This document shows, piece by piece, positions 6,804 to 58,930 of a stretch of 64,000 nucleotides of DNA. Location of the stretch: contig DDXR01000038.1 in the NCBI GenBank assembly GCA_002347565.1, positions 9,909 through 73,908 on the forward strand, given 5' to 3'. Below the pieces are notes generated by a model. That model was not told the DNA's origin. It ran no database searches and saw only the letters and a list, made by a program, of their open reading frames with translations. The position numbers and the translations under genes are program-made. The first letter of the stretch is position 1. Each line of letters opens with the position of its first letter. This DNA comes from a bacterium UBP2_UBA2255 (GTDB lineage: Bacteria > Edwardsbacteria > AC1 > EtOH8).

Positions 6804-6816
6804 CCGTCCCAGAATT

Positions 6817-26333: not shown

Positions 26334-26546
26334 TCAGTCCAGCTCCTCCAGCTCCACCGGCTCGTTCTTGGGATGGCAGACGCCGCAGAACACCGCGTCC
26401 GCCGTGGCGATGCCCTTGAGCTTCTGGTCCCTCGTCCGGTAGACCGTGATCAGGTTGGGCAGCTTGCGGGCGTGCTCCTTGCACACCGCCCGGCCGCAGA
26501 AGCTGCAGACGGCGTTGGCCGGCCGTTCGCAATGCCAGCATTCCAT
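26334..26546 (-). CDS. small zinc-ribbon protein (DUF2180-like; CxxC-CxxC-CxxH-CxxCH)
   Basis: MECWHCERPANAVCSFCGRAVCKEHAR...FCGVCHP carries four Cys/His pairs. Confidence 0.5.
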   Translation of the reverse strand: MECWHCERPANAVCSFCGRAVCKEHARKLPNLITVYRTRDQKLKGIATADAVFCGVCHPKNEPVELEELD

Positions 26547-26638
26547 GTGGTTCTCTCCTGTCGTGGTATGTGGCGATTTCCAGACGATGGAACGGGAACA
26601 GCGCCAGCGCTGCCGCTACACGCCGGAACCCACAGTCA

Positions 26639-42256: not shown

Positions 42257-43207
42257 TCAGCTCGCGCTCGCGCTCCCGGGGGCCGTGACGGAACGGCAGA
42301 CACGGGCCGCCAGCAGGGGATATCGCACTGCCGATGCCAGAAACAGGGCGAACCGCTGCCGTCCGTGCTGGGAGAACACCGTGAATGCCGATGCCAGGGT
42401 CGTGGCCGCCAGGAACAGACCGTACAGGATGATCAGGGAAGCCCGCTCTGCGCCGGAATGGTGCAGGCAGAAATACGTCACTTGGCTCCGGTGCAGTACC
42501 AGGAAGTTGTCCAACGGCCTTGCCTCGGTGCTCTTGCCACCGAGATGGACGACGTCGCCGCACGGCACGTAGTAGCAGCGGTACCCGTTTCGCGACAATC
42601 GCCGGGCGAGGTCCTTCTCCTCGGCGTACATGAAGTACGTCTCCCGCAGCAGTTCCGGGCCTGGCACCGCGGCGCGCCGCACCATCATGAAGGCGCCTCT
42701 CAGGTAATCGACCGGGCGGGCAATGCCAGCGCTATAATGTGCCCGCCGGTACCCCGGCAGCACCCAGCGGTCGATCAGCAGCGCCTGCAGCACCATCCGG
42801 CCGAGAGTGGGAAAATATCCGATCGACGGTTGCGGCCGTCCATCGGCCTCGATCAGCCGGCAGGCGGCCATCCCGGCGTCGGGCGTCCGTTCCATGAACT
42901 CCCGGACGTAACGGATGGCTCCCAGCCGCACCACGGTATCGGGATTCAGCAGCAGCAGGTAGGGCGCGGTGGCGACCGCGGCGCCCTGGTTGCAGGCCTT
43001 GGCGAACCCAGCGTTGACCTGGTTCGCGACCATGGTCACGCCAGGGAACTCCTGCCGCACCGCCTCGGCGCTGCCATCGCCGGAGTCGTTGTCGACCACG
43101 ATCACTTCGGCGGCCATGCCGCGGCACTCGTCGATCACCGACCGCAGGCAGTCCAGCAGCAGCGTGCGCACGTTGTAGCTGACGATGACGACTGCGAGAT
43201 CAGCCAT
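42257..43207 (-). CDS. glycosyltransferase family 2
   Basis: AVVIVSYNVRTLLLDCLRSV...VVDNDSGDGS match GT2. Confidence 0.8.
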   Translation of the reverse strand: MADLAVVIVSYNVRTLLLDCLRSVIDECRGMAAEVIVVDNDSGDGSAEAVRQEFPGVTMVANQVNAGFAKACNQGAAVATAPYLLLLNPDTVVRLGAIRYVREFMERTPDAGMAACRLIEADGRPQPSIGYFPTLGRMVLQALLIDRWVLPGYRRAHYSAGIARPVDYLRGAFMMVRRAAVPGPELLRETYFMYAEEKDLARRLSRNGYRCYYVPCGDVVHLGGKSTEARPLDNFLVLHRSQVTYFCLHHSGAERASLIILYGLFLAATTLASAFTVFSQHGRQRFALFLASAVRYPLLAARVCRSVTAPGSASAS

Positions 43208-44597
43208 GGCCACCACCGCCACCTTCGCCGCCGTAGCCCAAGCCCAGGGCGATTACCACCGCCAGAATAAAAACTGCCTCCCTGGTCTGCAGCACCGGTG
43301 TGGACAGCCCGACGAATAGCCCCAAGTAGCAGGCAATCATCGCCACCACCGCCCAAGCCCCCGTCGCATGCTCGGCGTTTGTCGCGGCCCTGATCCGCAG
43401 CCGCAGCAGCAGACCGCGGAATACCATCGCCATCAGGAATAGGCCGGCCAGCCCGCCCTTGGCGGCGACATTAATCAGGTCGTTGTGGGTGAAGTTCGTC
43501 CTGAGGTGCCCCATCCCTATCCCGGCGATGAACCGGTAGAACCTGTACTGGAACCCGTATCCGACTCCCAGCAGCGGAGCCTCGAGGAACAGCCTTCCCG
43601 CCTGCGCGAACTCGGCGCTGCGGTTCTGGAACGAGATGTCGTGCTGGTAATCTACTAGACTGCGGAACCGCTCCTCCTGCTGGCTCAGCACCTGTTCGGT
43701 CGCCTTGGTGTTGTACAGCGCGATCAGCGTGCCGATGACCAGCAACACCATCAGCACCACTGCCTGGGCTCGGTACCTGGTGAAGAAAAACAATATCATC
43801 GGCACGGCCAGCGCCATTGCCAGCCATACGGTGCGGGTCTGGGTCAGGCCGGCAGCCAGCAGGGCCAGCAGGGCCAGCAGCAGCCAGCGGTTGCGCCGGG
43901 GTGCTCGACTGGCGAACAGCGCCAGCCCTGCCATGAACATCAGCGGCGGGTGCAGGGTCGACAACCGGACAGGAACGCCGGCCACCCAGCCCATGCCCAG
44001 ACCGAGATGCCGGTTGAGAATGAATACGATATCGCGCAGCAATCCGGCGGCCACCGGCACAACAACCAGATAGATCAGCCAGCGCGATCCCTTCTCCCCG
44101 AAGTGGTCGACCAACACTGGGATCATCAGCAGCATCAGCAGCGGGGCGATGTCGCGCAGCCAGTCGGACAGCGTGAAGCCGTACTTCATGCCCAGCAGCG
44201 GTGACACCCCCAGGTAAATCGTGAACACGAAAATCCACCGGTATTCCGGGAGAGCCCAGGGATGCCGCCCGCGTCGGGCGTTTGTCCACAGCCATAGCGC
44301 CAGGTTGTAGCCGAGCAGCAGCGCCACGCCGACCTTGACGATGCCGATGCCGCCGGACGGCGGCACGAACGGATAGGTCAGTAACAGCAGGGCCGTGCCG
44401 TACACCGGCCGCCACAGGATCATCACGCCGCCGAACGCCAGCGCGATCATCGGCGCCAGGCTGGAGGTCGGGTAGAACAGGTACCGGTAGAGATAGCTGC
44501 TGCCCAGATAGATGGCGACCCCGGCGATCAGCAGGTCGCGCAACAGCGATGAACTGCGGAGCACCCGGTGGAATCGCTGTCCCGGTTCTACCGGCAT
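43200..44597 (-). CDS. O-antigen ligase/polymerase-like polytopic membrane protein (Wzy_C family)
   Basis: About 10-12 TM helices with a periplasmic loop containing LTQTRTVWLAMALAV...; architecture typical of WaaL/Wzy_C. Confidence 0.55.
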   Translation of the reverse strand: MPVEPGQRFHRVLRSSSLLRDLLIAGVAIYLGSSYLYRYLFYPTSSLAPMIALAFGGVMILWRPVYGTALLLLTYPFVPPSGGIGIVKVGVALLLGYNLALWLWTNARRGRHPWALPEYRWIFVFTIYLGVSPLLGMKYGFTLSDWLRDIAPLLMLLMIPVLVDHFGEKGSRWLIYLVVVPVAAGLLRDIVFILNRHLGLGMGWVAGVPVRLSTLHPPLMFMAGLALFASRAPRRNRWLLLALLALLAAGLTQTRTVWLAMALAVPMILFFFTRYRAQAVVLMVLLVIGTLIALYNTKATEQVLSQQEERFRSLVDYQHDISFQNRSAEFAQAGRLFLEAPLLGVGYGFQYRFYRFIAGIGMGHLRTNFTHNDLINVAAKGGLAGLFLMAMVFRGLLLRLRIRAATNAEHATGAWAVVAMIACYLGLFVGLSTPVLQTREAVFILAVVIALGLGYGGEGGGGGHG

Positions 44598-45682
44598 GAG
44601 GCCTCCATCAGCAGCTGATAGGTTCTCTCCCCCGCTTCGTCCCACGAAAACCGGATCGCGCGGTCGCGCCCCTTGTTGCCCAGGCTCAGTCTCAGGCCCG
44701 CATCATTGAGCAGGTGCGTCACCTTCCGGGCGATGTCGGCGGCATCGAGGGGATCGAAGTACCTGACCGCATCCCCGCCCACCTCCGGAAGCGACACCAC
44801 GTTGCTGCAGACCACGGGACACCCGCAGGCCATGGCCTCCAGCACCGGCAGGCCGAATCCCTCGACCAGGCTGGGGAACACGAACAGGGCCGCCGTGCGG
44901 TACAGGCGGATCACGTCATCATCGGACGGGTTCTCGATGATCTCCACGCTTCCCTCCAGATGTTTCGACATCACCAATGCCCGGATGTCGATGTAGAGGC
45001 CCCCGGGGCTGGCCGGCCGGCTTTGTCCCGCCAGGACCAGTTTCCCGGCGAACCCCTGCTGCCGCAGGATGGCATGGGCGTCGAGCAATCGTTCCAGGTT
45101 CTTGCGCCGGTCGAAAGCGCCGACGAAGAGCAGGAACGTGTCCCTCGGCTCGCCGGGCGGCGGCGGCGCGTACCCGGCGGAAACGCCGCACGGGATCACG
45201 CTGATCCTGGCGGCCGGGATGCCAGACAACCGCTGGATCTGGCCGGCAGAATACCTGGATATCGTGATGACCCTCGATGCCACCTTTTCCATCCTGGCCA
45301 TTTGCATCCTGTTCTGGATCCGGTCGGCCCACGAACGGCGGATCCCGCGCAACGCCGTCGCCGGGGCGACATCCAGGACCGTCGCCACGGTCGTCACGTG
45401 CGGCCATAGCCAGATATCATTGGCCGGGAAGTACATCAGGTCTATCGCGTCCCTTCGAACCGCCCGCGGCAGGGTCCAGTTCAGCCAGGGACGGCCGCGC
45501 TGCGGCGGGACATGGCGGGCGATGAGCCCGGTCCGGTCCATCGCCGCTTCGCGGGACGGGCTGTAGAGAAAGAACGCGTCACGCGCCAGGTCCAACCTCG
45601 CCAGGGCCGACACGATCTCGGTGACGTACCGGCCCGGTCCCCGGCCGCCGGACCTCGCCGTGATGTCAATGCCGATCCGCAT
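44588..45682 (-). CDS. glycosyltransferase family 1 (GT4)
   Basis: FVFPSLVEGFGLPVLEAMACGCPVV (E-x7-E) is the GT1 signature. Confidence 0.82.
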   Translation of the reverse strand: MRIGIDITARSGGRGPGRYVTEIVSALARLDLARDAFFLYSPSREAAMDRTGLIARHVPPQRGRPWLNWTLPRAVRRDAIDLMYFPANDIWLWPHVTTVATVLDVAPATALRGIRRSWADRIQNRMQMARMEKVASRVITISRYSAGQIQRLSGIPAARISVIPCGVSAGYAPPPPGEPRDTFLLFVGAFDRRKNLERLLDAHAILRQQGFAGKLVLAGQSRPASPGGLYIDIRALVMSKHLEGSVEIIENPSDDDVIRLYRTAALFVFPSLVEGFGLPVLEAMACGCPVVCSNVVSLPEVGGDAVRYFDPLDAADIARKVTHLLNDAGLRLSLGNKGRDRAIRFSWDEAGERTYQLLMEASCR

Positions 45683-47720: not shown

Positions 47721-48865
47721 ACGGCCATCAGCACCTTCTCGACCTGTGCCACCATGACGGACAGCCGGAAACTGCCGCGAACATGTTCCCGGGCTTTTTC
47801 CCGGCGTTCCTGTTTCTCCTGCTGCGTCAGCCCTATGGCGCTCCGGATCGCGCCGGCGAAGGCCTGCGCTGTCGGCTCGGCCACGAACCCGTTGTCCCCC
47901 ACCACCTCGGGCAGCGCGCCGCGGTCGGAGACGACCGGGATCGCGCCGCAGGCCATGGCCTCGGCCGCGGCCAGGCCGAAGGCCTCCAGGCACAGCGAAG
48001 GGACCAGGACGATCTCCGCCGTGCGCATCCTCGCCCAGACGTCCCGCCGCAGCAGGGCCCCGGCGTACGTCACCTGCTTGCCCAGTTTTTCGCGGCGGAT
48101 GAACGTCACCAGCTGGCCCTGGTAGCGGGCGGAGCGCCCGGTGCCGATGATCTCCAGCGGCAGGACCAGCCCCTGGTCGCGCAGCAGGGCCAGCGCCTCC
48201 AGCGCGACATGCGTCCCCTTGTGCCGCGAGACCGCCCCGACGAACAGCAGCTTGCGCTCCCGCTGTGCCGGGACGGCGCCGTCAAGAATTTCATCAGGCA
48301 GTCCGTTGTAGACCACCTGCAGCCGGTCCGGGGGGAATCCGTGCCCCGCCAGCGGCCGGGCGATGGCCTGTGAGACGGCGATCATACGCGCACGTTCCAG
48401 GGCGGGTTCGGTGTGGGACAGCCGCTGGACCAGCGACGGCGAATGGCGGTGATGCTTCCAGTAATGGCCGTAGTAATGGTTGTGGCAATGGACCGCGGTG
48501 CGGACCCCCATGTCGAGGGCCGCGGCCAGCGGGGACAGGGTCGTCCATTCCAGGTTGTGGACGTAGACCACGTCGGGCCGGTGCTTGCGCACGGCCTGCT
48601 GCACGATGCGATAGTTGCGGCGCGCCACTCCCATCCACCGCAACTTGGCCAGCAGGGTCCGCATCTGGCGGCGTTGCTCCACGCGCGGGTTCGAGGACAT
48701 CAGCGGCTCGACGCGGTACCGTTCCTCGTACTTCGCGGTCCCGGCCGTCAGCACGTCCACGGAGTGCCCCATCCGGGCCAGGCCGGTGAAGATGTCGTGG
48801 CACAGCAGCTCGGCGCCGCCCGTGTCGCGCTGGCGCATGAAGTTCTGGATGGCGAGGATTTTCAT
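47717..48865 (-). CDS. glycosyltransferase family 1 (GT4)
   Basis: LVPSLCLEAFGLAAAEAMACGAIPVVSDRGALPE; start at MKILAIQ (48865). Confidence 0.82.
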   Translation of the reverse strand: MKILAIQNFMRQRDTGGAELLCHDIFTGLARMGHSVDVLTAGTAKYEERYRVEPLMSSNPRVEQRRQMRTLLAKLRWMGVARRNYRIVQQAVRKHRPDVVYVHNLEWTTLSPLAAALDMGVRTAVHCHNHYYGHYWKHHRHSPSLVQRLSHTEPALERARMIAVSQAIARPLAGHGFPPDRLQVVYNGLPDEILDGAVPAQRERKLLFVGAVSRHKGTHVALEALALLRDQGLVLPLEIIGTGRSARYQGQLVTFIRREKLGKQVTYAGALLRRDVWARMRTAEIVLVPSLCLEAFGLAAAEAMACGAIPVVSDRGALPEVVGDNGFVAEPTAQAFAGAIRSAIGLTQQEKQERREKAREHVRGSFRLSVMVAQVEKVLMAV

Positions 48866-48887
48866 GAGATGTACGGCAGTTCGGACA

Positions 48888-49421
48888 TCAGATCCTTCGC
48901 CCGATTTTCTTCGCTGGCACACCACCAACAATAACATAGGGTTCTACATCCCTTGTCACAACGGCACCAGCACCGACAACTGCGCCATCCCCAATATTCA
49001 CGCCAGCAAGAATGATCACACCTGCGCCGATCCAAACATCATTCCCTATCTTGACGGGCTTATTGATCAGGGGCTGCTGCAAGATCATTTTTGTGCTTCT
49101 CTTGATGCCATGCTCATTCGTAAAAACCATCAACCCTGGGCCGATCATCACGTCGTGGCCTATTTCTATTTTTTCATCGGCGTTCAAGATCGCATTCAAA
49201 CCGATGCTTGAGTTATCGCCGATAAAAATGTTCCAGTAGTAGTTCAATTGGGCGCCTGGCTGTATGTTCACATTTCTCCCCATCTTCCCGACAAAATAGC
49301 GCAGAAAAGCGACCCGAGCTCTGGAACCAAAAGATTTGGCATCACGGGGTGCCGGTAAATCCTTCAGGAAAAGTGCGTAGAATAGCATGATCGCCTTTTC
49401 CAGATTATACTTGAGGCTCAT
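48888..49421 (-). CDS. hexapeptide-repeat sugar O-acetyltransferase (LbH family; WbbJ/MAT-like)
   Basis: IGDNSSIG...[10 protein letters not shown]...[31 protein letters not shown] hexapeptide repeats; ~47% GC, lower than the flanks. Confidence 0.8.
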
Positions 49422-50590
49422 TTCGCAACGTACCTTTCGATGATGTCGCATAGTTCCTCCACTCTCGCACCCCAGCTCCAACCAGACACCTGCCCGGTAA
49501 TGCGGGCCTGTATTGCTGCCCGATCGACCGGTGTCAGACATGCGTCGATGTACCGCGAAAAGACGGCTCGATCCTGCGATACCATAACATGTTCCTTCAA
49601 TGAATCATCCACTGGTACTGTTGAAACCACCATTTTCCCGGAAGCTTTATATTCAAGCAGTTTCAGTGGAAATCTGGAGCGCACAAATTCCTTATATCGG
49701 CCATCACATATCCATGGTATCAAACAGACAGCGAACGGCTTCAAGTAGGCTGGCAATGAGGTCCATGGCTTTGCCCCAAGGTAATGCATGTTTGTATTGC
49801 CATCAATCAGAAGCTTCAAACGCTCTCGACAGTCGTCCGTAACCGGTCCGATAAACACAAAACTCCTCCCCGCGTTTTGCGAGACTACGTATTCTAGTAA
49901 ATTGTAATCCAAGCCGGCATCGATCATGCCAACATAACCGATAATGGGGGGTGATATTCGCGAGATATCCTCTGGCACAGATAGCGGTTGTTGATTCTGC
50001 AAGTAAAAATGTTCGTCAACACCATGCTTAAACAACACGGCATTGGTGTTCATCGATTTGCATTTATCAAACAATGCCTCGGTAATAGCCAATGGTACGG
50101 TTACATTCGTGATCATTGCCTTTTCCCTGTTCTCCATCACTGAACGGAATTGACCGGAGTAGATTTCGGGGAAATTATCCGAGCAATGATAGACCGTGCA
50201 GGCAGCATCGGGGAAGGCGTCCAGCAAAAACGTATTCCAGGGGTTGCCCAGGAACAGTATCAGCTTGCTCGGGTCATACCGGCCCAGGGCGTGTTTGATC
50301 TGTGCGACAAAATACTTCGGATCGGCCGTGTTCATGACGAAATCGAACTTGTTCTTCCACGGCAGTTCCGAGGGCGACAGCACGGTCAGGCTTTCGTTCC
50401 CGGGCCGCCAGGCGCGCCCGGCCAGCGCCGCCAGCCCGTATTCCCCGACCTGCGCGTCAAGCGGCCGCGGGGGGTCGACAAAAATGACCCGGTTCTTTTT
50501 GGCCAGCCGGGACATGATGTGGTGCTTGCTGTAGCGGTTGCGGTTCCAGGGGATATTGGAGTCGCAAACTATGGTGTATCCCTCGATCAT
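49418..50590 (-). CDS. glycosyltransferase-like protein (GT1-related fold, weakly supported)
   Basis: 390-aa soluble protein in the glycan locus whose stop overlaps the acetyltransferase ATG; lower GC. Fold assignment is tentative. Confidence 0.4.
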
Positions 50591-51578
50591 CCCTTTTCCA
50601 TCAGCTCTTCCATGACGGACTGGACGGCGGCCCGCCTCTTATCCAGCGAATAGTTGTTCCCGATCCAAGAGCGGTACCGGCCGCCGTCCTCACATTCCAG
50701 CGCCTGCCTGATCTTGGCGGCGGCGGCTTCCGCTTCGCCGTACTCCGCATAGAACGCGTCGGGGCCGGCGACTTCCGGCAACGACCCCCGGCCGGTGACC
50801 ACCGGCACGCAGCCGCAGAGCATGGCCTCGGCCAGGGCGCAGCCGAACCCCTCGTGGGCCGAGAGCTGGGCGTAGACCTTTGCTTTGCCCATCAGTTCCA
50901 GGAGCCGGGGTTCCTCAAGGTACCCGGTGATCTCCAGGTTGGCCGGAGCCTCGCGCCTCAGCTTTTCGGCCGTGCCGTCGACGTCGCGGCCGGCGATGAC
51001 AAACCGAACTGGCGGCAGCAGCCGGGCCGCGGCGATGAAGGTATCCAGCCCCTTGCGGCTGACATTGTCGCGTTTCAGGTGGCAGACCGTCAGCACCAGC
51101 GGTTCCTTGGCCGCTCCGGCCGGGTATCGTGCCGGGTCGAATCCCATGGGGACCGCCACGACCCTCGCGCCGGGCGACGCCCGCAGGACCTCGCTCGCGC
51201 TGAATCCCGAGAAGGCCAGCACCCGGCCGGCGTGGCCCAGCGCCCAGTAGGCACGGCGCCATGGTCCACCCTCGGCGCGCAGGCCGTAGCCGATCTCCGG
51301 CATATGCGCCACGTCGTAGCCGCCGGCCGCGATCGCCGTCTTCCTGCCCATCAGCCTTGCCAGCGCCACCACCCAGAACGCATGCGCGCCGGAGAACCAG
51401 ACATAGGCCAGGTCCGCGTTCATCAGGTGCCGGAACGCGCGCAAGGGGAAAAGCGGGTCGCCGGCGCGGTAGCTGAGGTCGGCCAGCCGATGCCGTGTCG
51501 CCAGCATCTCGCGGTCCCTGCCCACGAACGACGCGCCTGAGGCCCATACCGGCTTGACGAAGAGTATCCTGCGCACTA
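50587..51578 (-). CDS. glycosyltransferase family 1 (GT4)
   Basis: YAQLSAHEGFGCALAEAMLCGCVPVVTGRGSLPE. Probable GTG start (VRRILFVKPVW) overlaps the upstream stop; the listed 461-aa N-terminus overlaps the methyltransferase gene. Confidence 0.7.
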
Positions 51579-52304
51579 CCGCCCCTTGGTGAGGACCATC
51601 GCCAGGCAATCCCCGCAGGTGCCGTGCAACGTCCGCCGCTGCAGCCAGTGGGCCAGGGCCGTCATCCCGTGCCGTTTCATGAGATCGTCCCCGGGGAACG
51701 AATTGCTGCCCACCCAAACCGACGTGACCTGCAGGCCCGCCCGTTCTGCCAGCGCGCGCAGCCGCTTGACCGAGAAGACATGCAGGTGCGTTTCGTCGAT
51801 CTGCCGCAGCTGCCCGAGCGCGGTCTCTCCGCGCATCATCCGCCGCCACCGCTGCTGCAGGGACGACGCGATAGGCACCGTGATGAAGATGAACCCGCCG
51901 CCGTGCAGGGCTCCCGCCATCCGTTGCAGGGCCAGCGCTGGATCGTCCAGGTGCTCCAGCACCTCGCAGCACAGCACCGCGTCAAATGCCCCGTCTCCCG
52001 GAAGCAGATAGACGCTGCCCTGCCCGACGTCGAGCCCCTTGGACCGGCAGATGTCGACAAATGGCTGCGACGCGTCGATGCCGTGGATGTCGGTGAAACC
52101 CAGGTTCCTGAGGTGCTCCAGGAAGAACCCGTCGCCGCAGCCGGCGTCGAGCACCTTGAGGCCGGTCGGCAGGCGATGGAAATACGACAGGAAGTATTCC
52201 ATCACCAGCCGGTGATGGTAGAAGATCAAACGGTTGCGGGACAGCAGCCGCCCGGCGCCGTACTGATCCCACATGTTCGAGCAAGCGGTGTTCCTGTCTT
52301 TCAT
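51576..52304 (-). CDS. class I SAM-dependent methyltransferase
   Basis: VLDAGCGDGFFLEHL ... FDAVLCCEVLEHLDDP ... LHGGGFIFI. Confidence 0.82.
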   Translation of the reverse strand: MKDRNTACSNMWDQYGAGRLLSRNRLIFYHHRLVMEYFLSYFHRLPTGLKVLDAGCGDGFFLEHLRNLGFTDIHGIDASQPFVDICRSKGLDVGQGSVYLLPGDGAFDAVLCCEVLEHLDDPALALQRMAGALHGGGFIFITVPIASSLQQRWRRMMRGETALGQLRQIDETHLHVFSVKRLRALAERAGLQVTSVWVGSNSFPGDDLMKRHGMTALAHWLQRRTLHGTCGDCLAMVLTKGR

Positions 52305-53242
52305 CGCGGGACGATCATCCGAGACATGAAGTACGCGGCCTCAGCGCCGTCGCCGATCCGCAAGCACTCCAGCGCCATGCTGCCGGCGGCCCGGCGCAGG
52401 ATCGGTCCCCGTCGGGCCGCCAGCGGGGCCGGGACCGCCGGGTCGGCCAGGGTCTTGCCCTTCAGCGCCAGCCGCTCCCTGCGGAACTTCCTGGTCCATG
52501 CCGCGCGCGATCCCGTCGTCTTGGAACTCTCGTGCGTTCGCATCGCCGCCAGGGCCTGTGGCAGGCGCGCCAGCCGGTGCCGCATCCCCAGCCGCAGCCA
52601 CAGGTCGTAGTCCATCACGTAGTGCAGCGACTCGTCGAACCACCCCAGCTCCCGCGCCGCGCCGGCCCTGAAGAAGGCCGCGGCCTGCGGAATGCCGTGG
52701 AACCAGCGGAGCATCGCCTCGAGGTCGAAGTCGGCCGCGTGCATCACCCCGGTCCGCTTCCCGCCCTCGTCGACGCCGTCGCAGTCGCCGTAGGCCATCG
52801 CGGCGTTGGGTTCCTTTCGCAATGCCTCGGCCGCTGTTCGGAGCGCGCCGGGCAGGTAGTAGTCGTCGGAGTTGATGTAGGCCGCGACCGCGCCCGTCGC
52901 CCGCCGCATCCCCTTGTTGATGGCGTGGCTCTGTCCGTTGTCCTTCTCACTCACCCAGAACGCCAGCCACGGCGCGTATTTCTTGATGATCGCAACGGTC
53001 CCGTCCGTGCTGCCGCCGTCGATCACGAGGTACTCCAGGTCCGGGTAGCCCTGCAGCAGCACCGAGCGGATCGTCTGCTCGATGAATTGCCCCTGGTTGA
53101 AGGACGGCGTGACGATGGTGATGCGCGGCCAGGGCGAACCGTCCGCCATGGCCGGCGGCGGCGAATCACAGCCCTCGGTCCAGGGCCAGCCGGTCCTGCC
53201 CGGCGGCGGGGCCGGCAGGTCGGATACGCTGGCCATCACCAT
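52301..53242 (-). CDS. glycosyltransferase family 2
   Basis: ITIVTPSFNQGQFIEQTIRSVLLQGYPDLEYLVIDGGSTDGT. ATG at 53242 (MVM) overlaps the upstream gene; the listed 449-aa ORF is over-extended. Confidence 0.82.
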   Translation of the reverse strand: MVMASVSDLPAPPPGRTGWPWTEGCDSPPPAMADGSPWPRITIVTPSFNQGQFIEQTIRSVLLQGYPDLEYLVIDGGSTDGTVAIIKKYAPWLAFWVSEKDNGQSHAINKGMRRATGAVAAYINSDDYYLPGALRTAAEALRKEPNAAMAYGDCDGVDEGGKRTGVMHAADFDLEAMLRWFHGIPQAAAFFRAGAARELGWFDESLHYVMDYDLWLRLGMRHRLARLPQALAAMRTHESSKTTGSRAAWTRKFRRERLALKGKTLADPAVPAPLAARRGPILRRAAGSMALECLRIGDGAEAAYFMSRMIVPR

Positions 53243-54234
53243 CCCGCCGCCTTCAGCAATCGGTCGCCCAACCTGACCAGCGGATGATAGGTCCTTGTCT
53301 GCGTGGATCTCAGCCACAGGTGCGTCAGTTTCTCCAGCGCGTTCCGAGGATCGCTGAACGTTCCGGTCTGGCCGGTCTTGCGGGCGATCGCGTCCCAGTC
53401 GACGTCCCAAATCGCCTGCTGGGAGAAATGCCCGGCCCCGTGCTTCCCGAACCAGCCAAGCACCTCGCGGTCGAACCAGTAGACATCGTCCTTTGTCACC
53501 GTCCGCATGTCGATCCCGGCTGCCTCGTAGGCGGCGAACCAGACGGGCCCGACCGGCTTGATCTGCCCGGCGGCGACGGCGTCCATGTGGTGGTACTGGC
53601 GGTAGAGGTCGACCGCGGACCGGCGCGGGTCGCGCAGCTGTTCCAGGCACACGTACCAGCGGTGCTTGCTTTTCATTCGGTCCCAGTCGGCGTACTGGTA
53701 ATGCAGCACCGCCCCGCGGTCGATCGTCACGATCGGACGATCAGGGTTCTTGGGCAGCCGGTCGCCATGCTGGAGTCCGCCCTGATACGGTCGGCCGTCG
53801 TCTGAATAGAAAATCCCTTTGTTGTTCGCGGCCCGCCAAAACGTTGCCAGGCCCGGCATCAGGTTCACCCAGGGCAGCGCGACCGTCGTCCCCGGCGCGG
53901 CGCCCAGCACGCCCTTCCAGATATCCGTGCCGAACACTTCGGCAGACAGGACTTCGTCGGCATCAAGCTGCGCCAGGATGCGCGGGCCGGACTGTTTCCG
54001 GGCCTCGTCGATCAGCAGCGACATCCGGGCGTGCTCGTTGTACAGGCTGGTGTCCGGGTTGTCCAGCACAGTGACCTTGGGGAACCCGCTCGCGATGGCG
54101 ACGGTATCATCGCTGGAATTCTGGTCGGCGACGATGATGCGGTCGGCCCACAAGCTGGCGCAGGCGAGGAAGCGCCCGATGATCCAGGCCTCGTTGCGGA
54201 CGGGCGTCAGGCAAATGACGGCGGGTTTCGCCAT
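53236..54234 (-). CDS. glycosyltransferase family 2-like protein
   Basis: AVICLTPVRNEAWIIGRFLACASLWADRIIVADQNSSDDT is a GT-A fold N-terminus. Confidence 0.6.
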   Translation of the reverse strand: MAKPAVICLTPVRNEAWIIGRFLACASLWADRIIVADQNSSDDTVAIASGFPKVTVLDNPDTSLYNEHARMSLLIDEARKQSGPRILAQLDADEVLSAEVFGTDIWKGVLGAAPGTTVALPWVNLMPGLATFWRAANNKGIFYSDDGRPYQGGLQHGDRLPKNPDRPIVTIDRGAVLHYQYADWDRMKSKHRWYVCLEQLRDPRRSAVDLYRQYHHMDAVAAGQIKPVGPVWFAAYEAAGIDMRTVTKDDVYWFDREVLGWFGKHGAGHFSQQAIWDVDWDAIARKTGQTGTFSDPRNALEKLTHLWLRSTQTRTYHPLVRLGDRLLKAAGW

Positions 54235-54252
54235 CTCAGATAACTGGGCCTA

Positions 54253-55401
54253 TCAAATGCTCTCCTGAATGACCGATTCATAAACCCGCTGCATTGACTT
54301 GGCGGCCTTTTCCCAGGCATATTGCATCGATCGCGCCTTGCCCATCTCTATCAATTCATCCCGTTTGTGCTGATTGTGTAACACTGTATTAACTGCACTT
54401 CGCAGTGCGCTAGGGTCCTTGGGCGGGAAGAAGACAGCCGCATCACCCGCAACTTCCCTATGGCAGCTTGTTTCGCTCGCAACAACTGGGCATTCGCACC
54501 GGAATGCTTCAGCGATGGGGAGAGAGAAACCTTCGTACAACGAAGGCACGATCAATAACTCAGCATTGGTGTAGAGATCTGCAAGCATGTGGTCGTTTGC
54601 AGCAACCTGAATGACATTCTCGGCGATTCCAAGCCCGGAAAAATAGGATCGTTCTATCCCTGAAAAAGGATTTTCGTTCGCGCATACCAATAGATACGGC
54701 TTGCTGCCGGACAGGAGCGGTCGTATCGCTTGGCATAGGAAATGAAAATTCTTGTATCCCGATCTTCTTCCGACATACAAGAAATACTTGCGTGGATATT
54801 GAGAACCTGTCGGCGCATTTCCTCTCCGACTCTGCAAGGATACCCCATGGTGTATCACGGTTATCTTTTGATGGGGGACACACAGAAAATCTATAATTTG
54901 CTTTTTAGTATTCTCCGAAACGGCAACAATATGGTTGGCCCTGTTGATTAAATCCCGTTTATAGAACAATAACGGGTCTTGGAGTGAATATTCAGGGTAC
55001 GTTTCTTGGAACATATCATGAACCGTGAGGACGAAAGGCTTCCTTCCGATCGCTGGCAGGAAGTAGGGGTCGTGGTAGGTTGGATGGAAGAGGTCATAGC
55101 GGTGCCGGTTGTTTGCCAACCACCGGTTAGCAAGTCGGCGGTTTTCGGCAAGCCGATCACTCACATATCTCGGTCCGCCAAACACAGCACGGATCCTGTT
55201 CCTGAAAGATGGATAGGGAATCTCCATCTGCAACCGTCCCAGTGCGCCATCGTCAGCCGCATATTGGTTCTGTCCGTAATAACGGGGAATCTGGATATCC
55301 ACGCCCAGCAATCGCATATGGCTGATGATCTCGAAAAAATAGCGACTTATCCCGCCATACCGTTGCATGCCGAAAATCTGGCCGTCGTATGCGACCTTCA
55401 T
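54253..55401 (-). CDS. glycosyltransferase family 1 (GT4)
   Basis: LIVPSLYEGFSLPIAEAFRCECPVVAS; ~45% GC. Confidence 0.8.
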   Translation of the reverse strand: MKVAYDGQIFGMQRYGGISRYFFEIISHMRLLGVDIQIPRYYGQNQYAADDGALGRLQMEIPYPSFRNRIRAVFGGPRYVSDRLAENRRLANRWLANNRHRYDLFHPTYHDPYFLPAIGRKPFVLTVHDMFQETYPEYSLQDPLLFYKRDLINRANHIVAVSENTKKQIIDFLCVPHQKITVIHHGVSLQSRRGNAPTGSQYPRKYFLYVGRRSGYKNFHFLCQAIRPLLSGSKPYLLVCANENPFSGIERSYFSGLGIAENVIQVAANDHMLADLYTNAELLIVPSLYEGFSLPIAEAFRCECPVVASETSCHREVAGDAAVFFPPKDPSALRSAVNTVLHNQHKRDELIEMGKARSMQYAWEKAAKSMQRVYESVIQESI

Positions 55402-56357
55402 CTGAACACTCTCGAGAGCCTGTTCGCGATTCGTGAAAGACAGCGCGCGATCATCATTTTACAGTTTTCCGCGCCTCTGGGTGTATAATACTTGAATAGC
55501 CCGCCGACATTATCCAGATTATAGTTGCAGTCCCTGCAAAGGCCGGGGAAAATACCGCGGTTGTGCTTACCGATCAATGCCATCCGTTTGGGTTCCCTGA
55601 GGACATCCTCCAAACTCTCCTTCCCAATGTTCCCAAAGACGACGCTTCCCTGAAAATCGTGTGAGCATAGAACAATATCGCCATTAGGATAGAGCACGAT
55701 CATGTTGGTGAGGTAGTCGCAGGCCGCTCGCGACGTACGTTTCACCAATCCCCGGTCAATTGTCTTGCCTTGCTGGTTATCGAATTTATAGCTCACCCTG
55801 AGGGTGATGCCTTCGATCTCGGAAAAGGTATTGATGAAATCGATCACCTCCTGCTGGTTGGCTTCAAAAGCCAGCATGTGTATTTGCGCGTTCTTCGCCT
55901 TGCGGAACTCCCCCTCGTCGCCCAGCTGCTTGATTCTCGCCACAACATTGTCGAACGACAGTCCGGTAATTCTCTCGTACGTATCCTTCCTGCCGGCGTT
56001 GAAGCTGATGAAGAAATTATCTATGCCTTTGGGCACCTTCGTAACCGCGGAGCCGTTCGTTACTATGGTCGTGGCAATGTGACGTTCGCGGCACAGCGGC
56101 AGCGCCCATTCGACCATTTCAATAAAATGCGGGTGAAGGTAGCTTTCACCGATGGAGTAAAAATTGATGTTCTTCAGTTGTTCCACATTCAAGATCTGTG
56201 CTATGAACGCTTGGAAAGCGTCCCACCCCAGGTCCAGTGGCTGCCTGATGGTGTGATTCAGGCATGTTGTACAGCGAGCCGTGCACCTCGTCGTGAAGGT
56301 GATTTTTGCTTCGACGCCGCCCGGATTGAAGAGTACCATTGGTCGGGATCGCCTCAT
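55398..56357 (-). CDS. radical SAM enzyme with SPASM/twitch-like C-terminal Cys cluster
   Basis: TTRCTARCTTC is the CxxxCxxC radical SAM motif. C-terminal CSHDFQGSVVFGN...GLCRDCNYN resembles a SPASM/twitch auxiliary cluster. ~45% GC. Confidence 0.7.
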   Translation of the reverse strand: MRRSRPMVLFNPGGVEAKITFTTRCTARCTTCLNHTIRQPLDLGWDAFQAFIAQILNVEQLKNINFYSIGESYLHPHFIEMVEWALPLCRERHIATTIVTNGSAVTKVPKGIDNFFISFNAGRKDTYERITGLSFDNVVARIKQLGDEGEFRKAKNAQIHMLAFEANQQEVIDFINTFSEIEGITLRVSYKFDNQQGKTIDRGLVKRTSRAACDYLTNMIVLYPNGDIVLCSHDFQGSVVFGNIGKESLEDVLREPKRMALIGKHNRGIFPGLCRDCNYNLDNVGGLFKYYTPRGAENCKMMIARCLSRIANRLSRVFR

Positions 56358-57595
56358 GATCCAACGCTCCAGAACGGGCGGAAAAGCGACGTCCAGCCCT
56401 TTCGGTTGACCAGCGGGTACCGTCTGCCCAGTCCGTCTGTGTTGTCCAGGTTGAACAATAGGCTCCCGTCCTGTTTTATGATCCTGCGGTCCATGTGAAT
56501 CCCGATGTCGAATTCAATCCGGTACATGCCGGCTGCCAATGTATTTGACGGGATTACCCATTTGAAGGTGTATGTTCCCGGTAACGCTTCCAGCGCTGGT
56601 GGTAACTTGTCGTCGTCATGGACTACATATGCAATTTCGTAATCATATTCGGAAAAGAGCGTAAAACCGGCAATCAAGCCGTGTATCTTCTGGTGCACGT
56701 ATACTTCGCAGCCAATTTCCAGCGGGCTTGAAGTGTGGAAGGTCCGCTGGGCGTCTTTGGGCTGAATCCATGTCCGAAGCAACGACAGATGTCCGTCGCC
56801 GGCCTGACCGCTCCATGCCTGCTTGATTTCGCCGGCATTCAGGATCAGATATCTGGAAATGACCTCTTCGATCTCGCCGGTGGCTGTCAACGTGCCATTT
56901 TCGAGGAGAATGCCTTTGGTGCAGAGGCTGGACACCGCGCCCATGTTATGGCTGACAAAAATGACTGTGCGGCCCTGCCGCGAGACCTCGCTCATTTTCC
57001 CCAAGCATTTCTTTTGAAACAGTGCGTCGCCGACGGACAGCACCTCGTCCACCAGCAGTATCTCGGGCTCCAAATGCGCCGCCACCGCGAACGCCAGCCG
57101 CATGTACATGCCCGACGAGTAGTGCTTCACCGGCGTGTCGATGAACTTTTCCACCTCGGCGAAGGCCACCATCTCGTCGAACCGCCGCCGGATCTCGGCC
57201 CGGCCCATGCCCAGGATGGCGCCGTTGAGGAAGATGTTCTCGCGGCCGGTCAGCTCCGGATGGAACCCGGTGCCCACCTCCAGCAGCGACCCCACCCGGC
57301 CCCGCAGCTCCACCCGGCCCGCGGTGGGCTCGGTGATCTTGGAGAGGATCTTCAGCAGCGTGCTCTTGCCCGCGCCGTTGCGGCCGATGACGCCCACCAC
57401 CTCGCCCTGCTTGACCTCGAACGAGACGTCCTTGAGGGCCCAGAATTCATTGTCCGTTGAACATTGCCTTGTTTGAACGTTCGGACGCTTGAACGCCGAA
57501 GCGATGGAATCGCGGAGGGTGTCGTGCTTTTTATGCAGCGCCCCGATGCGGTATTTCTTGCCAAGGCTCTCGGCCCTGATCACGGTATCTGACAT
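56354..57595 (-). CDS. wzt: polysaccharide ABC transporter ATP-binding protein Wzt with C-terminal glycan-binding (Wzt_C-like) domain
   Basis: Walker A GRNGAGKST, signature YSSGMYMRL, Walker B LLVDEVLSVGD, plus a ~160-aa C-terminal beta-rich extension. Start taken at MSDTVIRAESLGKKY. Confidence 0.85.
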   Translation of the reverse strand: MSDTVIRAESLGKKYRIGALHKKHDTLRDSIASAFKRPNVQTRQCSTDNEFWALKDVSFEVKQGEVVGVIGRNGAGKSTLLKILSKITEPTAGRVELRGRVGSLLEVGTGFHPELTGRENIFLNGAILGMGRAEIRRRFDEMVAFAEVEKFIDTPVKHYSSGMYMRLAFAVAAHLEPEILLVDEVLSVGDALFQKKCLGKMSEVSRQGRTVIFVSHNMGAVSSLCTKGILLENGTLTATGEIEEVISRYLILNAGEIKQAWSGQAGDGHLSLLRTWIQPKDAQRTFHTSSPLEIGCEVYVHQKIHGLIAGFTLFSEYDYEIAYVVHDDDKLPPALEALPGTYTFKWVIPSNTLAAGMYRIEFDIGIHMDRRIIKQDGSLLFNLDNTDGLGRRYPLVNRKGWTSLFRPFWSVGS

Positions 57596-57600
57596 TACTT

Positions 57601-57657
57601 CCGTTTGCACGTTGGAGCGTTGAGACGTTATCACGTTCGAACGCGTTGACGTTATTG
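57601..57657. repeat. tandem array of six ACGTT-core units with 8-nt period, abutting the 3' end of the four-helix-bundle gene
   Basis: gcACGTTggagCGTTgagACGTTatcACGTTcgaACGCGTTgACGTTatt; unit starts at 57609, 57617, 57625, 57633, 57641 and 57649. Confidence 0.7.
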
Positions 57658-58017
57658 GTTTTTAAGGTACGTTATCAATTTGCTGATCTGGCTGCTGCAC
57701 TTTTCGGCCTTGTCGAACAGGACCGCGAAATCGTCGCGGCTGATGTACTCCTGGTCGAGCACGGCATACAACTGGGACCGGAACTCTCCCGAGGAGGCCT
57801 TGGCGATGCCGAGATAGCGGATGAACCCCGGCTTCGTCTGGCTCTCGAAACCCTCGGCGATGTTCGACATGATCGAGACCGCGGAACGGCAGATCTGGTC
57901 GCGCAGTCCAAAATCACGCTTGAACGCCTTGCTGCCGGAGATCGCATACGCCGCCCTGGTCAGTTCCCGCGCCGTCTTCCAGGCTTCGATGTCCTCGAAC
58001 CGCTTGAAGGTGCCCAT
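57652..58017 (-). CDS. four-helix-bundle protein (23S rRNA intervening-sequence protein family)
   Basis: MGTFKRFEDIEAWKTARELTRAAYAISG...DQICRSAVSIMSNIAEGF...YLGIAKASSGEFRSQLYAV is characteristic of this family; it sits between wzm and wzt. Confidence 0.8.
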   Translation of the reverse strand: MGTFKRFEDIEAWKTARELTRAAYAISGSKAFKRDFGLRDQICRSAVSIMSNIAEGFESQTKPGFIRYLGIAKASSGEFRSQLYAVLDQEYISRDDFAVLFDKAEKCSSQISKLITYLKNQ

Positions 58018-58096: not shown

Positions 58097-58930
58097 TCAG
58101 GCCTCGTCCGCGAAGGTCTTCTCCATCCGCCGGAAATAGAAGGCGCCGCTCACCAGGATCGCCAGCCCCGCGCACAGCGAGACCAGCATGGTGTTCAGCG
58201 GCATCAGGCCGGTGCCCAGGAACGCCCAGCGGAACCCGTTGATCACGCCCACCATCGGGTTGAGCGCGTAGAGCGGCTGCCACTGGGCCGGGATCAGCAT
58301 CAGCGAGTAGGCCACCGGCGAGGCGAACATCCAGGCCTGGATCATGAACGGAATGGCGTGGCCCACGTCGCGGTAGCGGACGTTCAGCGCCGACAGCCAC
58401 AGCCCCGCCCCCAGCGCCACCGACAGCGTCACCAGCACCAGCAACGGCAGCAGCAGCAGCCCCCAGCCGAACGGCATGCGGTACCAGGCCATCAGGGCGA
58501 ACAGCACCAGCAGCGAGATGGCGAAGTCCACCAGCGGGGACAGGGTGCTGGAGACCGGGATCAGCAGGCGAGGGAAGTAGACCTTCTTGACCATGCCGGA
58601 ACTGCCCACCACGCTATTGGTGGCGCGGGTCAGCGCGGCGGCGAACAGGTTCCACGGCAGCAGGGCGCAGAAGGTGAACACCGGGTAGGGCACACCGCCC
58701 GAGGGCAGCTTGCCGAACCTGCCGAACACCAGGCTGAAGATCACCATCGTCACCACCGGTTGGATCACCGCCCACAGCACGCCCAGCGCGGTCTGCTTGT
58801 AGCGCACCAGGATGTCGCGCCAGGTCAGGAAGTACAGCAGCTCCCGGTAGCGCCACAGCTCCCGGACGTCGATCGGAATCCAGCCCCTGCGGGGCTCGAT
58901 GATGGTGACGGGTGCGTCGGCGTCCATCAA
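58097..58930 (-). CDS. wzm: polysaccharide ABC transporter permease Wzm (ABC-2 type)
   Basis: Six-TM ABC-2 permease with N-terminal ELWRYRELLYFLTWRDILVRYKQTALGVLWAVIQP, typical of Wzm/TagG. Confidence 0.85.
   Translation of the reverse strand: MMDADAPVTIIEPRRGWIPIDVRELWRYRELLYFLTWRDILVRYKQTALGVLWAVIQPVVTMVIFSLVFGRFGKLPSGGVPYPVFTFCALLPWNLFAAALTRATNSVVGSSGMVKKVYFPRLLIPVSSTLSPLVDFAISLLVLFALMAWYRMPFGWGLLLLPLLVLVTLSVALGAGLWLSALNVRYRDVGHAIPFMIQAWMFASPVAYSLMLIPAQWQPLYALNPMVGVINGFRWAFLGTGLMPLNTMLVSLCAGLAILVSGAFYFRRMEKTFADEA

Follow-up and report, generated by a model that had tools for sequence, protein, structure and literature searches.

Interval 54253–56357 of the window, by which we mean the whole 64-kb stretch of DNA analysed, is made up entirely of two overlapping open reading frames on the minus strand. 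The initial annotation had recognised a glycosyltransferase gene and a radical SAM gene here, and Pfam matches bear out both, the glycosyltransferase belonging to CAZy family GT4. The radical SAM protein, called rSAM below, is the core of the finding. ThrRS similarity places the source, an uncultured bacterium, in the FCB group as a relative of Candidatus Edwardsbacteria.

54253–55401, minus strand: GT4-family glycosyltransferase, 382 aa (Pfam Glycos_transf_1 80 bits, Glyco_transf_4 68 bits)
55398–56357, minus strand: radical SAM / Twitch-domain enzyme (rSAM), 319 aa
54200–57100, no strand: low-GC patch, about 51% GC, spanning the GT4 and rSAM genes together with the 3′ portion of wzt

The interval had been described as a cassette of ~45% GC inside a ~68% GC cluster. 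The latter figure agrees with the measured background of 67.9 ± 3.0% (1-kb windows), and the low GC of the interval is real, but its value is 50.4% (GT4 gene 49.5%, rSAM gene 51.4%), and no 500-bp window other than the lowest (0.454, at 54500–54999) comes down to ~45%. At the GT4 and rSAM genes the dip has a z of −5.9, and it is therefore not due to chance. It extends beyond the two genes to which it had been assigned, since the patch of about 54200–57100 takes in the 3′ part of wzt. GC3 is 55–66% in the GT4 and rSAM genes versus 78–96% in the neighbouring genes, and within wzt it is 64% in the C-terminal half versus 83% in the ATPase half. Low-GC patches number five in the 64-kb window, this one included, and a second patch of the same glycan locus lies at 48.4–50.9 kb. 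An Rfam scan of the window returned no RNA elements, and the window has no tRNAs.

The surrounding genes of the operon are the following.

58097–58930, minus strand: wzm, ABC-2 type permease of the glycan exporter (Pfam ABC2_membrane 81 bits; 56% identical to Wzm of the related locus L001; GC3 96%, native-like)
57652–58017, minus strand: small gene of 121 aa between wzm and wzt, 23S_rRNA_IVP family (PF05635 label from the identical contig L014)
56354–57634, minus strand: wzt, ATPase of the glycan exporter with a C-terminal extension, approximately residues 270–426 (ABC_tran 85.8 bits)
53236–54234, minus strand: GT2-like gene, 332 aa, native GC (Glyco_tranf_2_4 35 bits; GC3 86%)
52301–53650, minus strand: GT2 glycosyltransferase (Glycos_transf_2 91 bits), true start probably near 53242, 313 aa as called on L014
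51576–52304, minus strand: class I SAM methyltransferase of the same operon (Methyltransf_23 87 bits)

Together, wzm and wzt are the pair of ABC-2 permease and ATPase genes found in ABC-transporter-dependent export. Wzt matches NCBIfam galactan/teichoic export ATPases at E values of 1e-55 to 1e-64, and its best PDB match is the full-length Wzt of Aquifex aeolicus (8dku/7k2t, E 1e-67), with residues 62–378 aligned, beyond the ATPase part, and the alignment reaching residue 351 of 404 in the A. aeolicus protein. The C-terminal extension of about 155 aa is putatively of the carbohydrate-binding-domain type, scoring 16.4 bits with Wzt_C, which is below the cut-off of 30.4. The wzt and rSAM genes, and likewise the rSAM and GT4 genes, are coupled through ATGA overlaps accompanied by Shine-Dalgarno-like sequences. 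A gene of the 23S_rRNA_IVP family occupies the equivalent spot in L001/L002. The GT2 gene at 52301–53650 is the orthologue of the GT2 that follows GT4 in L001 (12149–13228) and L019 (3412–4455), with 45–49% identity, and the GT2-like gene at 53236–54234 has no counterpart in the syntenic blocks of these two loci.

Domains, cysteines and characterised relatives of the radical SAM protein

The CX3CX2C motif and the C-terminal cysteine cluster noted initially are both present in rSAM, at C25/C29/C32 and C213/C231/C274/C277, and the protein ends in a basic helix.

56262–56285, minus strand: CX3CX2C motif, CTARCTTC, C25/C29/C32, predicted ligands of the SAM-cleaving [4Fe-4S] cluster, at least 90% conserved in the family
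55527–55721, minus strand: Twitch domain, C213-X12-G-X4-C231 ... C274-X2-C277, with an invariant H233-D234-F235; four predicted ligands of one auxiliary [4Fe-4S] cluster
55401–55472, minus strand: basic amphipathic C-terminal helix AENCKMMIARCLSRIANRLSRVFR, candidate membrane-surface anchor (helix 296–318 in the AF2 model)

The protein has the partial TIM-barrel fold of radical SAM enzymes (PF04055), scoring 39.4 bits with Pfam SPASM (cut-off 21.5) and 29.3 bits with Radical_SAM, marginally under the cut-off of 29.5. A SPASM motif comprises seven cysteines in the arrangement CX9-15GX4C...CX2CX5CX3C...C and holds two auxiliary clusters. Across the 24 members of the rSAM family only seven cysteines are conserved in all, three of the SAM cluster and the four auxiliary ones, and the CX5CX3C...C part is absent. 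Since only four of the seven SPASM cysteines are present, the domain is predicted to be a Twitch with one auxiliary cluster, and the cysteine count in the family rules out a full two-cluster SPASM enzyme. The SPASM label of the initial annotation thus stands as a Pfam match and has to be narrowed to a one-cluster Twitch; the Pfam model still gives 39 bits, a Twitch being a SPASM domain in truncated form (PMC9012708). The C-terminal helix has a hydrophobic moment of 0.98, compared to 0.54 ± 0.12 for shuffled sequences, and a net charge of +5. Most of the 24 family members carry a basic tail, which is clearly amphipathic in about half of those, and four have no tail.

Curated models place rSAM in none of the known families. 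Its scores in NCBIfam, in bits and with the cut-off in brackets, are 26 (284) for MoaA, 22 (349) for anSME, 70 (380) for W_rSAM_matur, 20 (232) for PFL-AE, 24 (650) for NirJ1 and 15 (318) for TYW1, and those of ten more distant relatives in NCBIfam and Pfam are likewise nowhere near the cut-offs of housekeeping or curated families, so that the housekeeping family considered at the outset did not materialise. A cobalamin-dependent C-methylase of the GenK/Fom3 type, which had been suggested as a candidate, is excluded because the protein has no B12-binding Pfam match; CX3CX2C is found already at residue 25.

The sequence profile of the rSAM family picks out BtrN at E 4.5e-15, with all four auxiliary cysteines aligned, and BtrN is the best PDB sequence match as well as the structure with the lowest rmsd to rSAM. 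By sequence, BtrN is the closest characterised relative. In Foldseek, the top match of the rSAM model was BlsE (7VOB, E 4.8e-13), and SpeY (7WZX) was among the structural matches. BtrN oxidises a secondary alcohol of a sugar-like ring by two electrons (PMC9012708), and its auxiliary cluster has Cys4 ligation (PMC10337720). In the rSAM family the four auxiliary cysteines are invariant or near-invariant, from which full Cys4 ligation with no open iron site is predicted. Identity to BtrN is only about 16–20%, so that transfer of function from this enzyme is weak. Given a closest characterised relative of this kind and a glycosyltransferase as companion, rSAM probably makes an unusual sugar modification.

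Other reactions on a sugar would be redox-neutral epimerisation, as by HygY, NeoN and the avilamycin enzyme, or a decarboxylation of uronic acid to pentose in the manner of BlsE, which decarboxylates cytosylglucuronate (PMC3715490). A single residue change switches Twitch enzymes between epimerase and dehydrogenase, according to the HygY paper cited in PMC10991966. However, the 24-member family has no conserved non-ligand cysteine of the NeoN/HygY kind to give the hydrogen back, an absence that indirectly favours two-electron oxidation of an alcohol to a ketone. The BlsE model TIGR04466 (NCBIfam) does not match rSAM at E ≤ 0.01, BlsE itself was missed by the family profile at E ≤ 1, and there is no UDP-glucose dehydrogenase among the annotated genes of the locus. 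We regard these other reactions as unlikely.

Most SPASM/Twitch enzymes are peptide or protein maturases, and the Pfam SPASM match would allow rSAM to be one, acting on a small peptide or a neighbouring protein. Yet the rSAM gene overlaps with its neighbours on both sides, which leaves no room for the gene of a precursor peptide, and every annotated context is rich in glycosyltransferases, on which grounds this role was considered very unlikely. Moreover, the RiPP-maturase models of NCBIfam are all far from their cut-offs, and in the sequence-profile search BtrN outscores every peptide enzyme by about 35 bits.

Gene neighbourhoods, fusions and probable horizontal exchange

The rSAM family consists of 24 clusters among 5.8 billion proteins and is scattered over mostly uncultured lineages; at E ≤ 1e-30, 73 representatives were counted; a scan of viral_contigs found no relatives, leaving phage carriage unsupported. 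All relatives with annotated flanks sit among glycosyltransferase genes, most of them in recognisable glycan-assembly loci. Among the loci with annotated flanks, the window and 14 others have a GT4 gene next to that of rSAM, two of the 14 (L028 and L033) seeming to be duplicate samples of a single place. The neighbour in L025/L027 is a methyltransferase gene instead, with a GT4 further upstream in L027. Because GT4 genes are abundant in such loci, part of this adjacency is expected by chance. The two proteins are at times fused, P0157 being GT4–rSAM and P0169 GT4–methyltransferase–rSAM, the methyltransferase domain of the latter being of the class I SAM type also encoded in the window operon. 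TPR repeats occur in P0153 and P0154, and the rSAM gene of L009 adjoins the gene of a GT4–TPR protein. The GT4 of the window and those next to rSAM in L003, L001 and L019 are reciprocal best matches. A single orthologous partner was considered and fails, as the adjacent GT4s form at least two orthologous groups, recurring across different export systems, and those of L006 and L009 are not orthologous to the others.

Near rSAM, an aminotransferase, reductase or other follow-up enzyme is not consistently present. Among the annotated contexts DegT occurs in two, L004 and the window, where it lies at 33149–34258, 21 kb from the rSAM gene; a conserved aminotransferase partner in the style of BtrN/BtrS was accordingly rejected. 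The window also encodes WecA, at 34266–35285.

It can be argued that rSAM acts on a soluble nucleotide sugar, providing an unusual donor for the partner GT4 alone. The characterised Twitch sugar enzymes BtrN, BlsE and SpeY use small soluble molecules, P0204, one of the more distant relatives, carries a fused cytidylyltransferase domain, and tight pairing with one GT4 would fit a donor-specific transferase. Against this, the annotated contexts have no conserved nucleotide-sugar pathway gene in common, the amphipathic C-terminal helix and the TPR fusions point instead to a membrane or a protein complex, and the rSAM gene is translationally coupled to that of the exporter ATPase. A soluble substrate is possible in our view, though on the unlikely side.

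In nine contexts wzt lies directly upstream of the rSAM gene, and the order of the window, in which the two genes overlap, recurs in L001/L002, L019, L004 and L005 and on the contigs of P0017 and P0014. In E. coli O8/O9a, wbdD likewise follows wzt directly. By analogy with the role of WbdD/WbbB in enterobacterial O antigens, rSAM, alone or with GT4 and the methyltransferase, could put on the non-reducing end a cap that halts elongation and is recognised by the C-terminal carbohydrate-binding domain of Wzt. Besides gene order, this idea is supported by the alignment of the Wzt C-terminal extension with full-length A. aeolicus Wzt past the ATPase part, by the low-GC patch uniting 3′ wzt, rSAM and GT4, and by the GT4–methyltransferase–rSAM and TPR fusions, which are reminiscent of multidomain terminators. 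Identity to L001/L004 also runs in parallel for the Wzt C-terminus (53–54%) and rSAM (54–56%). Transporters of the Wzt type are described, in PMC9445017, as recognising a chemically modified chain terminus through their C-terminal domain. However, some relatives belong to Wzx-flippase or teichoic-acid-like loci that have no Wzt (L003, L006, L020, L024 and the contig of P0015), and the ordinary methyltransferases of the window locus could cap the chain unaided. In L005, where rSAM is 52% identical, the Wzt C-terminus cannot be aligned with that of the window, and strict co-evolution of the two is therefore not upheld. It seems doubtful, on the whole, that rSAM is a chain terminator. In its most specific and equally doubtful form, the cap would be an oxidised (keto or aldehyde) terminal sugar that stops growth and serves as export ticket for the carbohydrate-binding domain of Wzt, a radical, oxygen-independent terminator in anaerobes moving horizontally with the matching Wzt C-terminus. 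If rSAM were such a terminator, it would widen what is known of how chain length is controlled and export gated.

Whichever its role, the history of the locus is that of a mosaic. The genes wzm, wzt and rSAM and the downstream GT2 are common to the window and L001/L019 at 45–61% identity, and the GT4 of the window is only about 30% identical to the GT4s of these loci. Shared genes around a divergent GT4 point to a mosaic of an older wzm-to-GT2 block, which contradicts a clean two-gene cassette inserted in the locus. In relatives, the thrS-adjacent site is occupied by other glycan loci. Base composition, the patchy phylogenetic spread and the differing thrS-adjacent loci fit horizontal exchange, and the proposal of a horizontally acquired tailoring module can be retained to this extent, with the cassette given up.

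Proposed role and comparison with known systems

Our preferred reading, for which we see about an even chance, is that rSAM is a carbohydrate-directed, BtrN-like Twitch enzyme forming a two-gene unit with GT4 inside a Wzm/Wzt surface-glycan operon, probably oxidising a sugar hydroxyl by two electrons during assembly of the glycan exported by the ABC transporter. In such a scheme, the CX3CX2C cluster would cleave SAM reductively, and the resulting 5′-deoxyadenosyl radical would take a hydrogen atom from the hydroxyl-bearing carbon of the sugar. The second electron would pass to the fully cysteine-ligated auxiliary cluster, giving a net conversion of alcohol to ketone (or aldehyde). The target sugar may be the residue that GT4 installs or is to extend, and rSAM would probably act on the lipid-linked glycan, rather than on a nucleotide sugar, at the inner face of the membrane, held there by its basic amphipathic C-terminal helix.

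In our literature searches no description of the rSAM family was found, nor any paper assigning a radical SAM enzyme to polysaccharide assembly of the undecaprenyl-linked or Wzm/Wzt-dependent kind. A conserved rSAM–GT4 unit, at times a single fused protein, would bring radical chemistry to the diversification of bacterial surface glycans and could account for unusual sugars of uncultured anaerobes. As a small family of compact proteins (about 310 aa), rSAM and its relatives lend themselves to enzymological study.

Among characterised enzymes, BtrN is the 2-deoxy-scyllo-inosamine dehydrogenase of the butirosin pathway in Bacillus circulans (PDB 4M7S/4M7T), acting on a cyclitol/sugar. It has in common with rSAM the radical SAM core, a Twitch domain with four aligned cysteines and a D-F pair after the second of them. 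Against this, identity is 16–20%, rSAM is 70 residues longer and ends in a basic helix, and its gene lies near wzt and GT4 in a surface-glycan export operon instead of an aminoglycoside antibiotic cluster, with no partner aminotransferase adjacent. BlsE, the cytosylglucuronate decarboxylase of the blasticidin S pathway, is similar in size (327 aa, rSAM 319 aa) and has a sugar substrate, but the motif proposed for its second cluster, C317xC319xxC322 (PMC3715490), is unlike the C...C...CxxC of rSAM. HygY, NeoN and SpeY are, again, small radical SAM enzymes, epimerases and dehydrogenases of Twitch or related type, that belong to aminoglycoside pathways and abstract hydrogen from a sugar carbon; the epimerases HygY and NeoN need a cysteine as hydrogen donor (Cys249 in NeoN), for which the rSAM family has no conserved equivalent. 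Each of the characterised Twitch sugar enzymes BtrN, BlsE, SpeY and HygY belongs to an antibiotic pathway and has a soluble intermediate as substrate, as does NeoN; rSAM is found in a glycan locus. The peptide and protein enzymes anSME, SuiB, CteB and PqqE match rSAM in overall fold and over the initial half of the SPASM motif (CX9-15GX4C), yet they possess seven cysteines and two auxiliary clusters, in contrast to the four cysteines and one predicted cluster of the rSAM family.

Finally, WbdD/WbbB are encoded after wzt, operate with a Wzt that has a carbohydrate-binding domain, and combine methyltransferase and repeat or ruler domains with a C-terminal membrane-binding helix, their chemistry being that of a kinase/methyltransferase or a Kdo transferase. 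rSAM resembles them in the position of its gene after wzt, the C-terminal extension of Wzt, the relatives fused to methyltransferase and TPR domains and the candidate membrane helix, but it has no sequence or fold relationship to them, its chemistry is entirely different and its relatives occur also where there is no Wzt.

Gene content and base composition of the glycan locus

The interval 54253-56357 is occupied by two overlapping ORFs on the minus strand, lying in a glycan-assembly locus (about 34-59 kb of the window) in which every gene is on the minus strand:

58097-58930, minus strand, wzm (permease of the ABC-type glycan exporter)
57652-58017, minus strand, small 23S_rRNA_IVP-family (PF05635) gene between wzm and wzt
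56354-57634, minus strand, wzt (exporter ATPase)
55398-56357, minus strand, radical SAM protein (rSAM), 319 aa, with C25-X3-C29-X2-C32 and a C-terminal cysteine cluster
54253-55401, minus strand, glycosyltransferase, 382 aa, Pfam Glycos_transf_1 (80 bits) and Glyco_transf_4 (68 bits)
53236-54234, minus strand, GT2-like gene
52301-53650, minus strand, GT2 gene
51576-52304, minus strand, SAM methyltransferase
about 44.6-51.6 kb, minus strand, further GT4 and GT2 genes and a hexapeptide acyltransferase
43200-44645, minus strand, Wzy_C/ligase-like membrane protein
39970-40740, minus strand, polysaccharide deacetylase
34266-35285, minus strand, WecA-like initiating transferase
33149-34258, minus strand, DegT aminotransferase

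The Glycos_transf_1 and Glyco_transf_4 matches assign the product of 54253-55401 to CAZy family GT4, and rSAM scores 39.4 bits for SPASM (cut-off 21.5) and 29.3 bits for Radical_SAM (cut-off 29.5). Wzt best matches the full-length Aquifex aeolicus Wzt (E 1e-67), in an alignment that passes the ATPase part and enters the C-terminal domain. Since ATGA overlaps occur at both the wzt/rSAM and rSAM/GT4 junctions with GGAG-like sequences upstream, the three genes are probably translationally coupled.

The wzm-wzt spacer holds a 23S_rRNA_IVP-family gene not only in the window but also in two distantly related comparison loci, L001 (7499-7684) and L002 (2061-2252), where AbiEii-like and ParE/antitoxin genes have also entered this position; the spacer seems to be a favoured insertion site for small selfish genes.

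Average GC of the interval is 50.4% (GT4 49.5%, rSAM gene 51.4%) against a background of 67.9 ± 3.0% in 1-kb windows (z = -5.9), which bears out the dip described in the initial annotation, although the 45% given there applies to no more than one 500-bp window, the lowest of all. At third codon positions GC amounts to 55% in GT4 and 66% in rSAM, compared to 78-96% in neighbouring genes, and the patch extends upstream into wzt, whose C-terminal half has a GC3 of 64% vs 83% in the ATPase half. It is one of five such patches in the window. A second island within the glycan locus (48401-50900, about 50% GC, z = -5.8) encodes an acyltransferase with hexapeptide repeats and a TuaH-like glycosyltransferase (ORFs 48888-49421 and 49418-50590, minus strand), which makes the locus a patchwork in composition rather than the product of one insertion. 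Three more patches lie outside it (2601-4500, 16301-18100 and 24901-26600; <58% in 1-kb windows), the first comprising, with names read from translations, a panD-like gene (2884-3246), a membrane ORF of very high AT content (3246-3827) and the beginning of a gene resembling panC.

Enzyme class and proposed reaction

Only 24 relatives of rSAM were retrieved from 5.8 billion protein clusters, none above 58% identity apart from the self-hit, and their alignment has only seven conserved cysteines, the three of CX3CX2C together with C213, C231, C274 and C277. The SPASM domain carries two auxiliary clusters and the Twitch domain one (PMC9012708); four conserved auxiliary cysteines predict a single cluster and hence, by definition, a Twitch domain, so that the motif and cysteine cluster noted earlier are present while the SPASM domain type proposed with them has to be replaced. 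Compared with all PDB sequences, the family profile finds BtrN first, the radical SAM dehydrogenase of the butirosin pathway (E 4.5e-15), covering core and Twitch region with all four auxiliary cysteines lined up, followed by viperin-like enzymes and YydG at E about 1e-4. For the AlphaFold2 model (pLDDT 88.8), the two best Foldseek matches are BlsE, the cytosylglucuronate decarboxylase of the blasticidin S pathway, and BtrN; therefore fold alone does not separate sugar from peptide enzymes, and it is sequence that carries the link to BtrN. Membership in a housekeeping family, which would have refuted the initial reading, was checked against NCBIfam and is not supported, since no curated model was approached either by rSAM (W_rSAM_matur 70 vs 380 bits, MoaA 26 vs 284, anSME 22 vs 349) or by ten more distant relatives. 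A GenK/Fom3-type C-methylase, suggested earlier as a candidate, is ruled out because rSAM has no B12-binding domain.

In BtrN, the Cys4-ligated auxiliary cluster is the proposed acceptor of the second electron, leading to a ketone (PMC10337720, PMC9012708). Twitch radical SAM sugar epimerases require a cysteine for hydrogen-atom return (Cys249 in NeoN), and HygY with one cysteine mutated becomes a dehydrogenase (PMC10991966). Given that the 24 relatives have a Cys4 site as in BtrN and no further conserved cysteine, two-electron oxidation is favoured: rSAM would oxidise a sugar hydroxyl on the residue handled by its partner GT4. That it is specifically a dehydrogenase is put forward tentatively. 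An epimerase or BlsE-like decarboxylase is unlikely, with the donor cysteine missing, no TIGR04466 match and no uronic-acid pathway gene among the annotated locus genes.

At the far end of the locus, the DegT sugar aminotransferase gene adjoins that of the WecA-like transferase, and the annotated locus genes include no SDR-type dehydratase or dehydrogenase that would provide it with a keto-sugar. By the precedent of BtrN and an aminotransferase, a link between DegT and rSAM is conceivable, but relatives do not share this pairing.

Gene neighbourhood, partner glycosyltransferases and fusions

Flanking genes were read or annotated in the window and 16 further loci; a GT4 gene neighbours rSAM in 14 of these 16 as well as in the window. 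It lies immediately downstream in the window, L001/L002, L019, L004, L005, L007, L020, L024 and the contigs of P0017, P0014 and P0015, and upstream in L003, L008, L009, L028 and L033 (the last two apparently one place sampled twice); in L006 the rSAM gene follows those of a GT4 and a flippase. The exceptions are L025 and L027, where the rSAM gene begins within that of a 187-aa methyltransferase; a GT4 lies about 2 kb further upstream in L027, and none was identified in L025. These two, from one metagenome, carry a 40%-identical relative (5423-6855 and 5426-6879, respectively) and many small ORFs, with a tubulin/FtsZ-like ORF downstream in L025, and look like plasmid or phage. Their gene order mirrors the fusion P0169.

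Directly upstream of rSAM, wzt is found in nine contexts including the window, amounting to about six to seven independent loci once the close relationship of L001, L002 and L019 and the common sample of the P0014 and P0017 contigs are taken into account; the remaining contexts employ a Wzx flippase or belong to a CDP-ribitol/LicD locus. Because flanking genes overlap the rSAM gene and its contexts are always rich in glycosyltransferase genes, a role as peptide or protein maturase is very improbable.

A single orthologous partner GT4 was rejected, as the adjacent GT4s form at least two recurring groups, one in the window, L001, L019 and L003 (150-490 bits to each other) and another in L004, L020 and L024 (about 200-230 bits). 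Each spans different export systems, indicating that the rSAM-GT4 pair moves as a unit. The glycan locus of L003 also contains a second, unrelated radical SAM/SPASM gene (2958-3923, 23% identity to the family), whose neighbours encode a GT8 glycosyltransferase and an acyltransferase; in uncultured bacteria of low GC, loci of this kind may harbour several tailoring enzymes of the radical SAM type.

Among the longer proteins matched by the profile, Pfam identified fusions of GT4 with rSAM/Twitch (P0157, 681 aa), of GT4, class I methyltransferase and rSAM (P0169, 838 aa), of rSAM with TPR repeats (P0153, P0154) and, in a more distant relative, of cytidylyltransferase with rSAM (P0204). In P0157 and P0169 the rSAM part, about 35% identical to the window family, retains the full set of seven cysteines, and in L009 a TPR-extended rSAM protein adjoins a GT4–TPR protein. 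These fusions, the strongest evidence, suggest that rSAM and GT4, often with a methyltransferase, act in one step or complex, and rSAM is quite likely a sugar-tailoring enzyme working with GT4.

The attraction of rSAM as maker of a chain-end cap read by the Wzt C-terminal domain lies in its position right after wzt, the low-GC patch common to it and the 3' part of wzt, the parallel identities of both to L001/L004 and the multidomain fusions. Relatives also occur in Wzt-free loci, however, and the Wzt C-terminus of L005 is unalignable, leaving this role improbable. For the tailoring enzyme paired with GT4, a lipid-linked glycan is somewhat favoured as target, and action at the nucleotide-sugar level is rather unlikely. 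Taken whole, the proposal of a GT4-paired enzyme oxidising a hydroxyl on such a glycan is evenly balanced.

Distribution, exchange and comparison with known systems

An HMM search through all of 1.84 billion representatives gave about ten sequences >260 bits and 73 with E ≤ 1e-30, a scan of viral contigs found no relatives, and among 185,579 species (one genome each) only four clear relatives occur, in Lachnospiraceae, Endomicrobiia, Candidatus Levybacteria and Phycisphaerales MAGs. The family is therefore rare and patchily distributed in uncultured lineages, most of them presumably anaerobic. The threonyl-tRNA synthetase encoded nearby shares 78-79% identity with proteins annotated as Candidatus Edwardsbacteria or candidate division TA06, placing the host among uncultured FCB-group bacteria. 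L017 and L018 (thrS at 10001-11938 in each, ThrRS 79-80% identical) have downstream of thrS a different glycan locus, of Wzx-flippase type and lacking wzm, wzt and rSAM; the site is thus hypervariable in the lineage.

Identity to L001/L019 is 56% for Wzm (L001 only), 55-61% for Wzt, 56-58% for rSAM, about 30-32% for GT4 and 45-49% for the downstream GT2. The common block thus exceeds the rSAM-GT4 pair, and the window has an extra native-GC GT2-like gene (53236-54234) inserted; hence the low-GC patch is best seen as a mosaic piece within an older block running from wzm to GT2, rather than as a self-contained two-gene insertion. The broad idea of a horizontally mobile tailoring module survives, with revisions to its domain type and boundaries, to the GC value and to the chemistries considered.

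The rSAM C-terminus is a predicted helix (residues 296-318, net charge +5) with a hydrophobic moment of 0.98 vs 0.54 ± 0.12 in shuffled tails. A basic tail is present in most of the 24 relatives and clearly amphipathic in about half of these; four relatives have no tail. The helix could possibly be an in-plane membrane anchor, placing the enzyme where lipid-linked glycans are built. BtrN, in contrast, has no basic C-terminal tail. Literature searches found no radical SAM enzyme placed in Wzm/Wzt or undecaprenyl-linked glycan assembly. To our knowledge, the characterised Twitch sugar enzymes all come from antibiotic pathways. The family described here is an uncurated one of Twitch radical SAM enzymes that, as one unit with a GT4, has been recruited to the assembly of surface polysaccharides.
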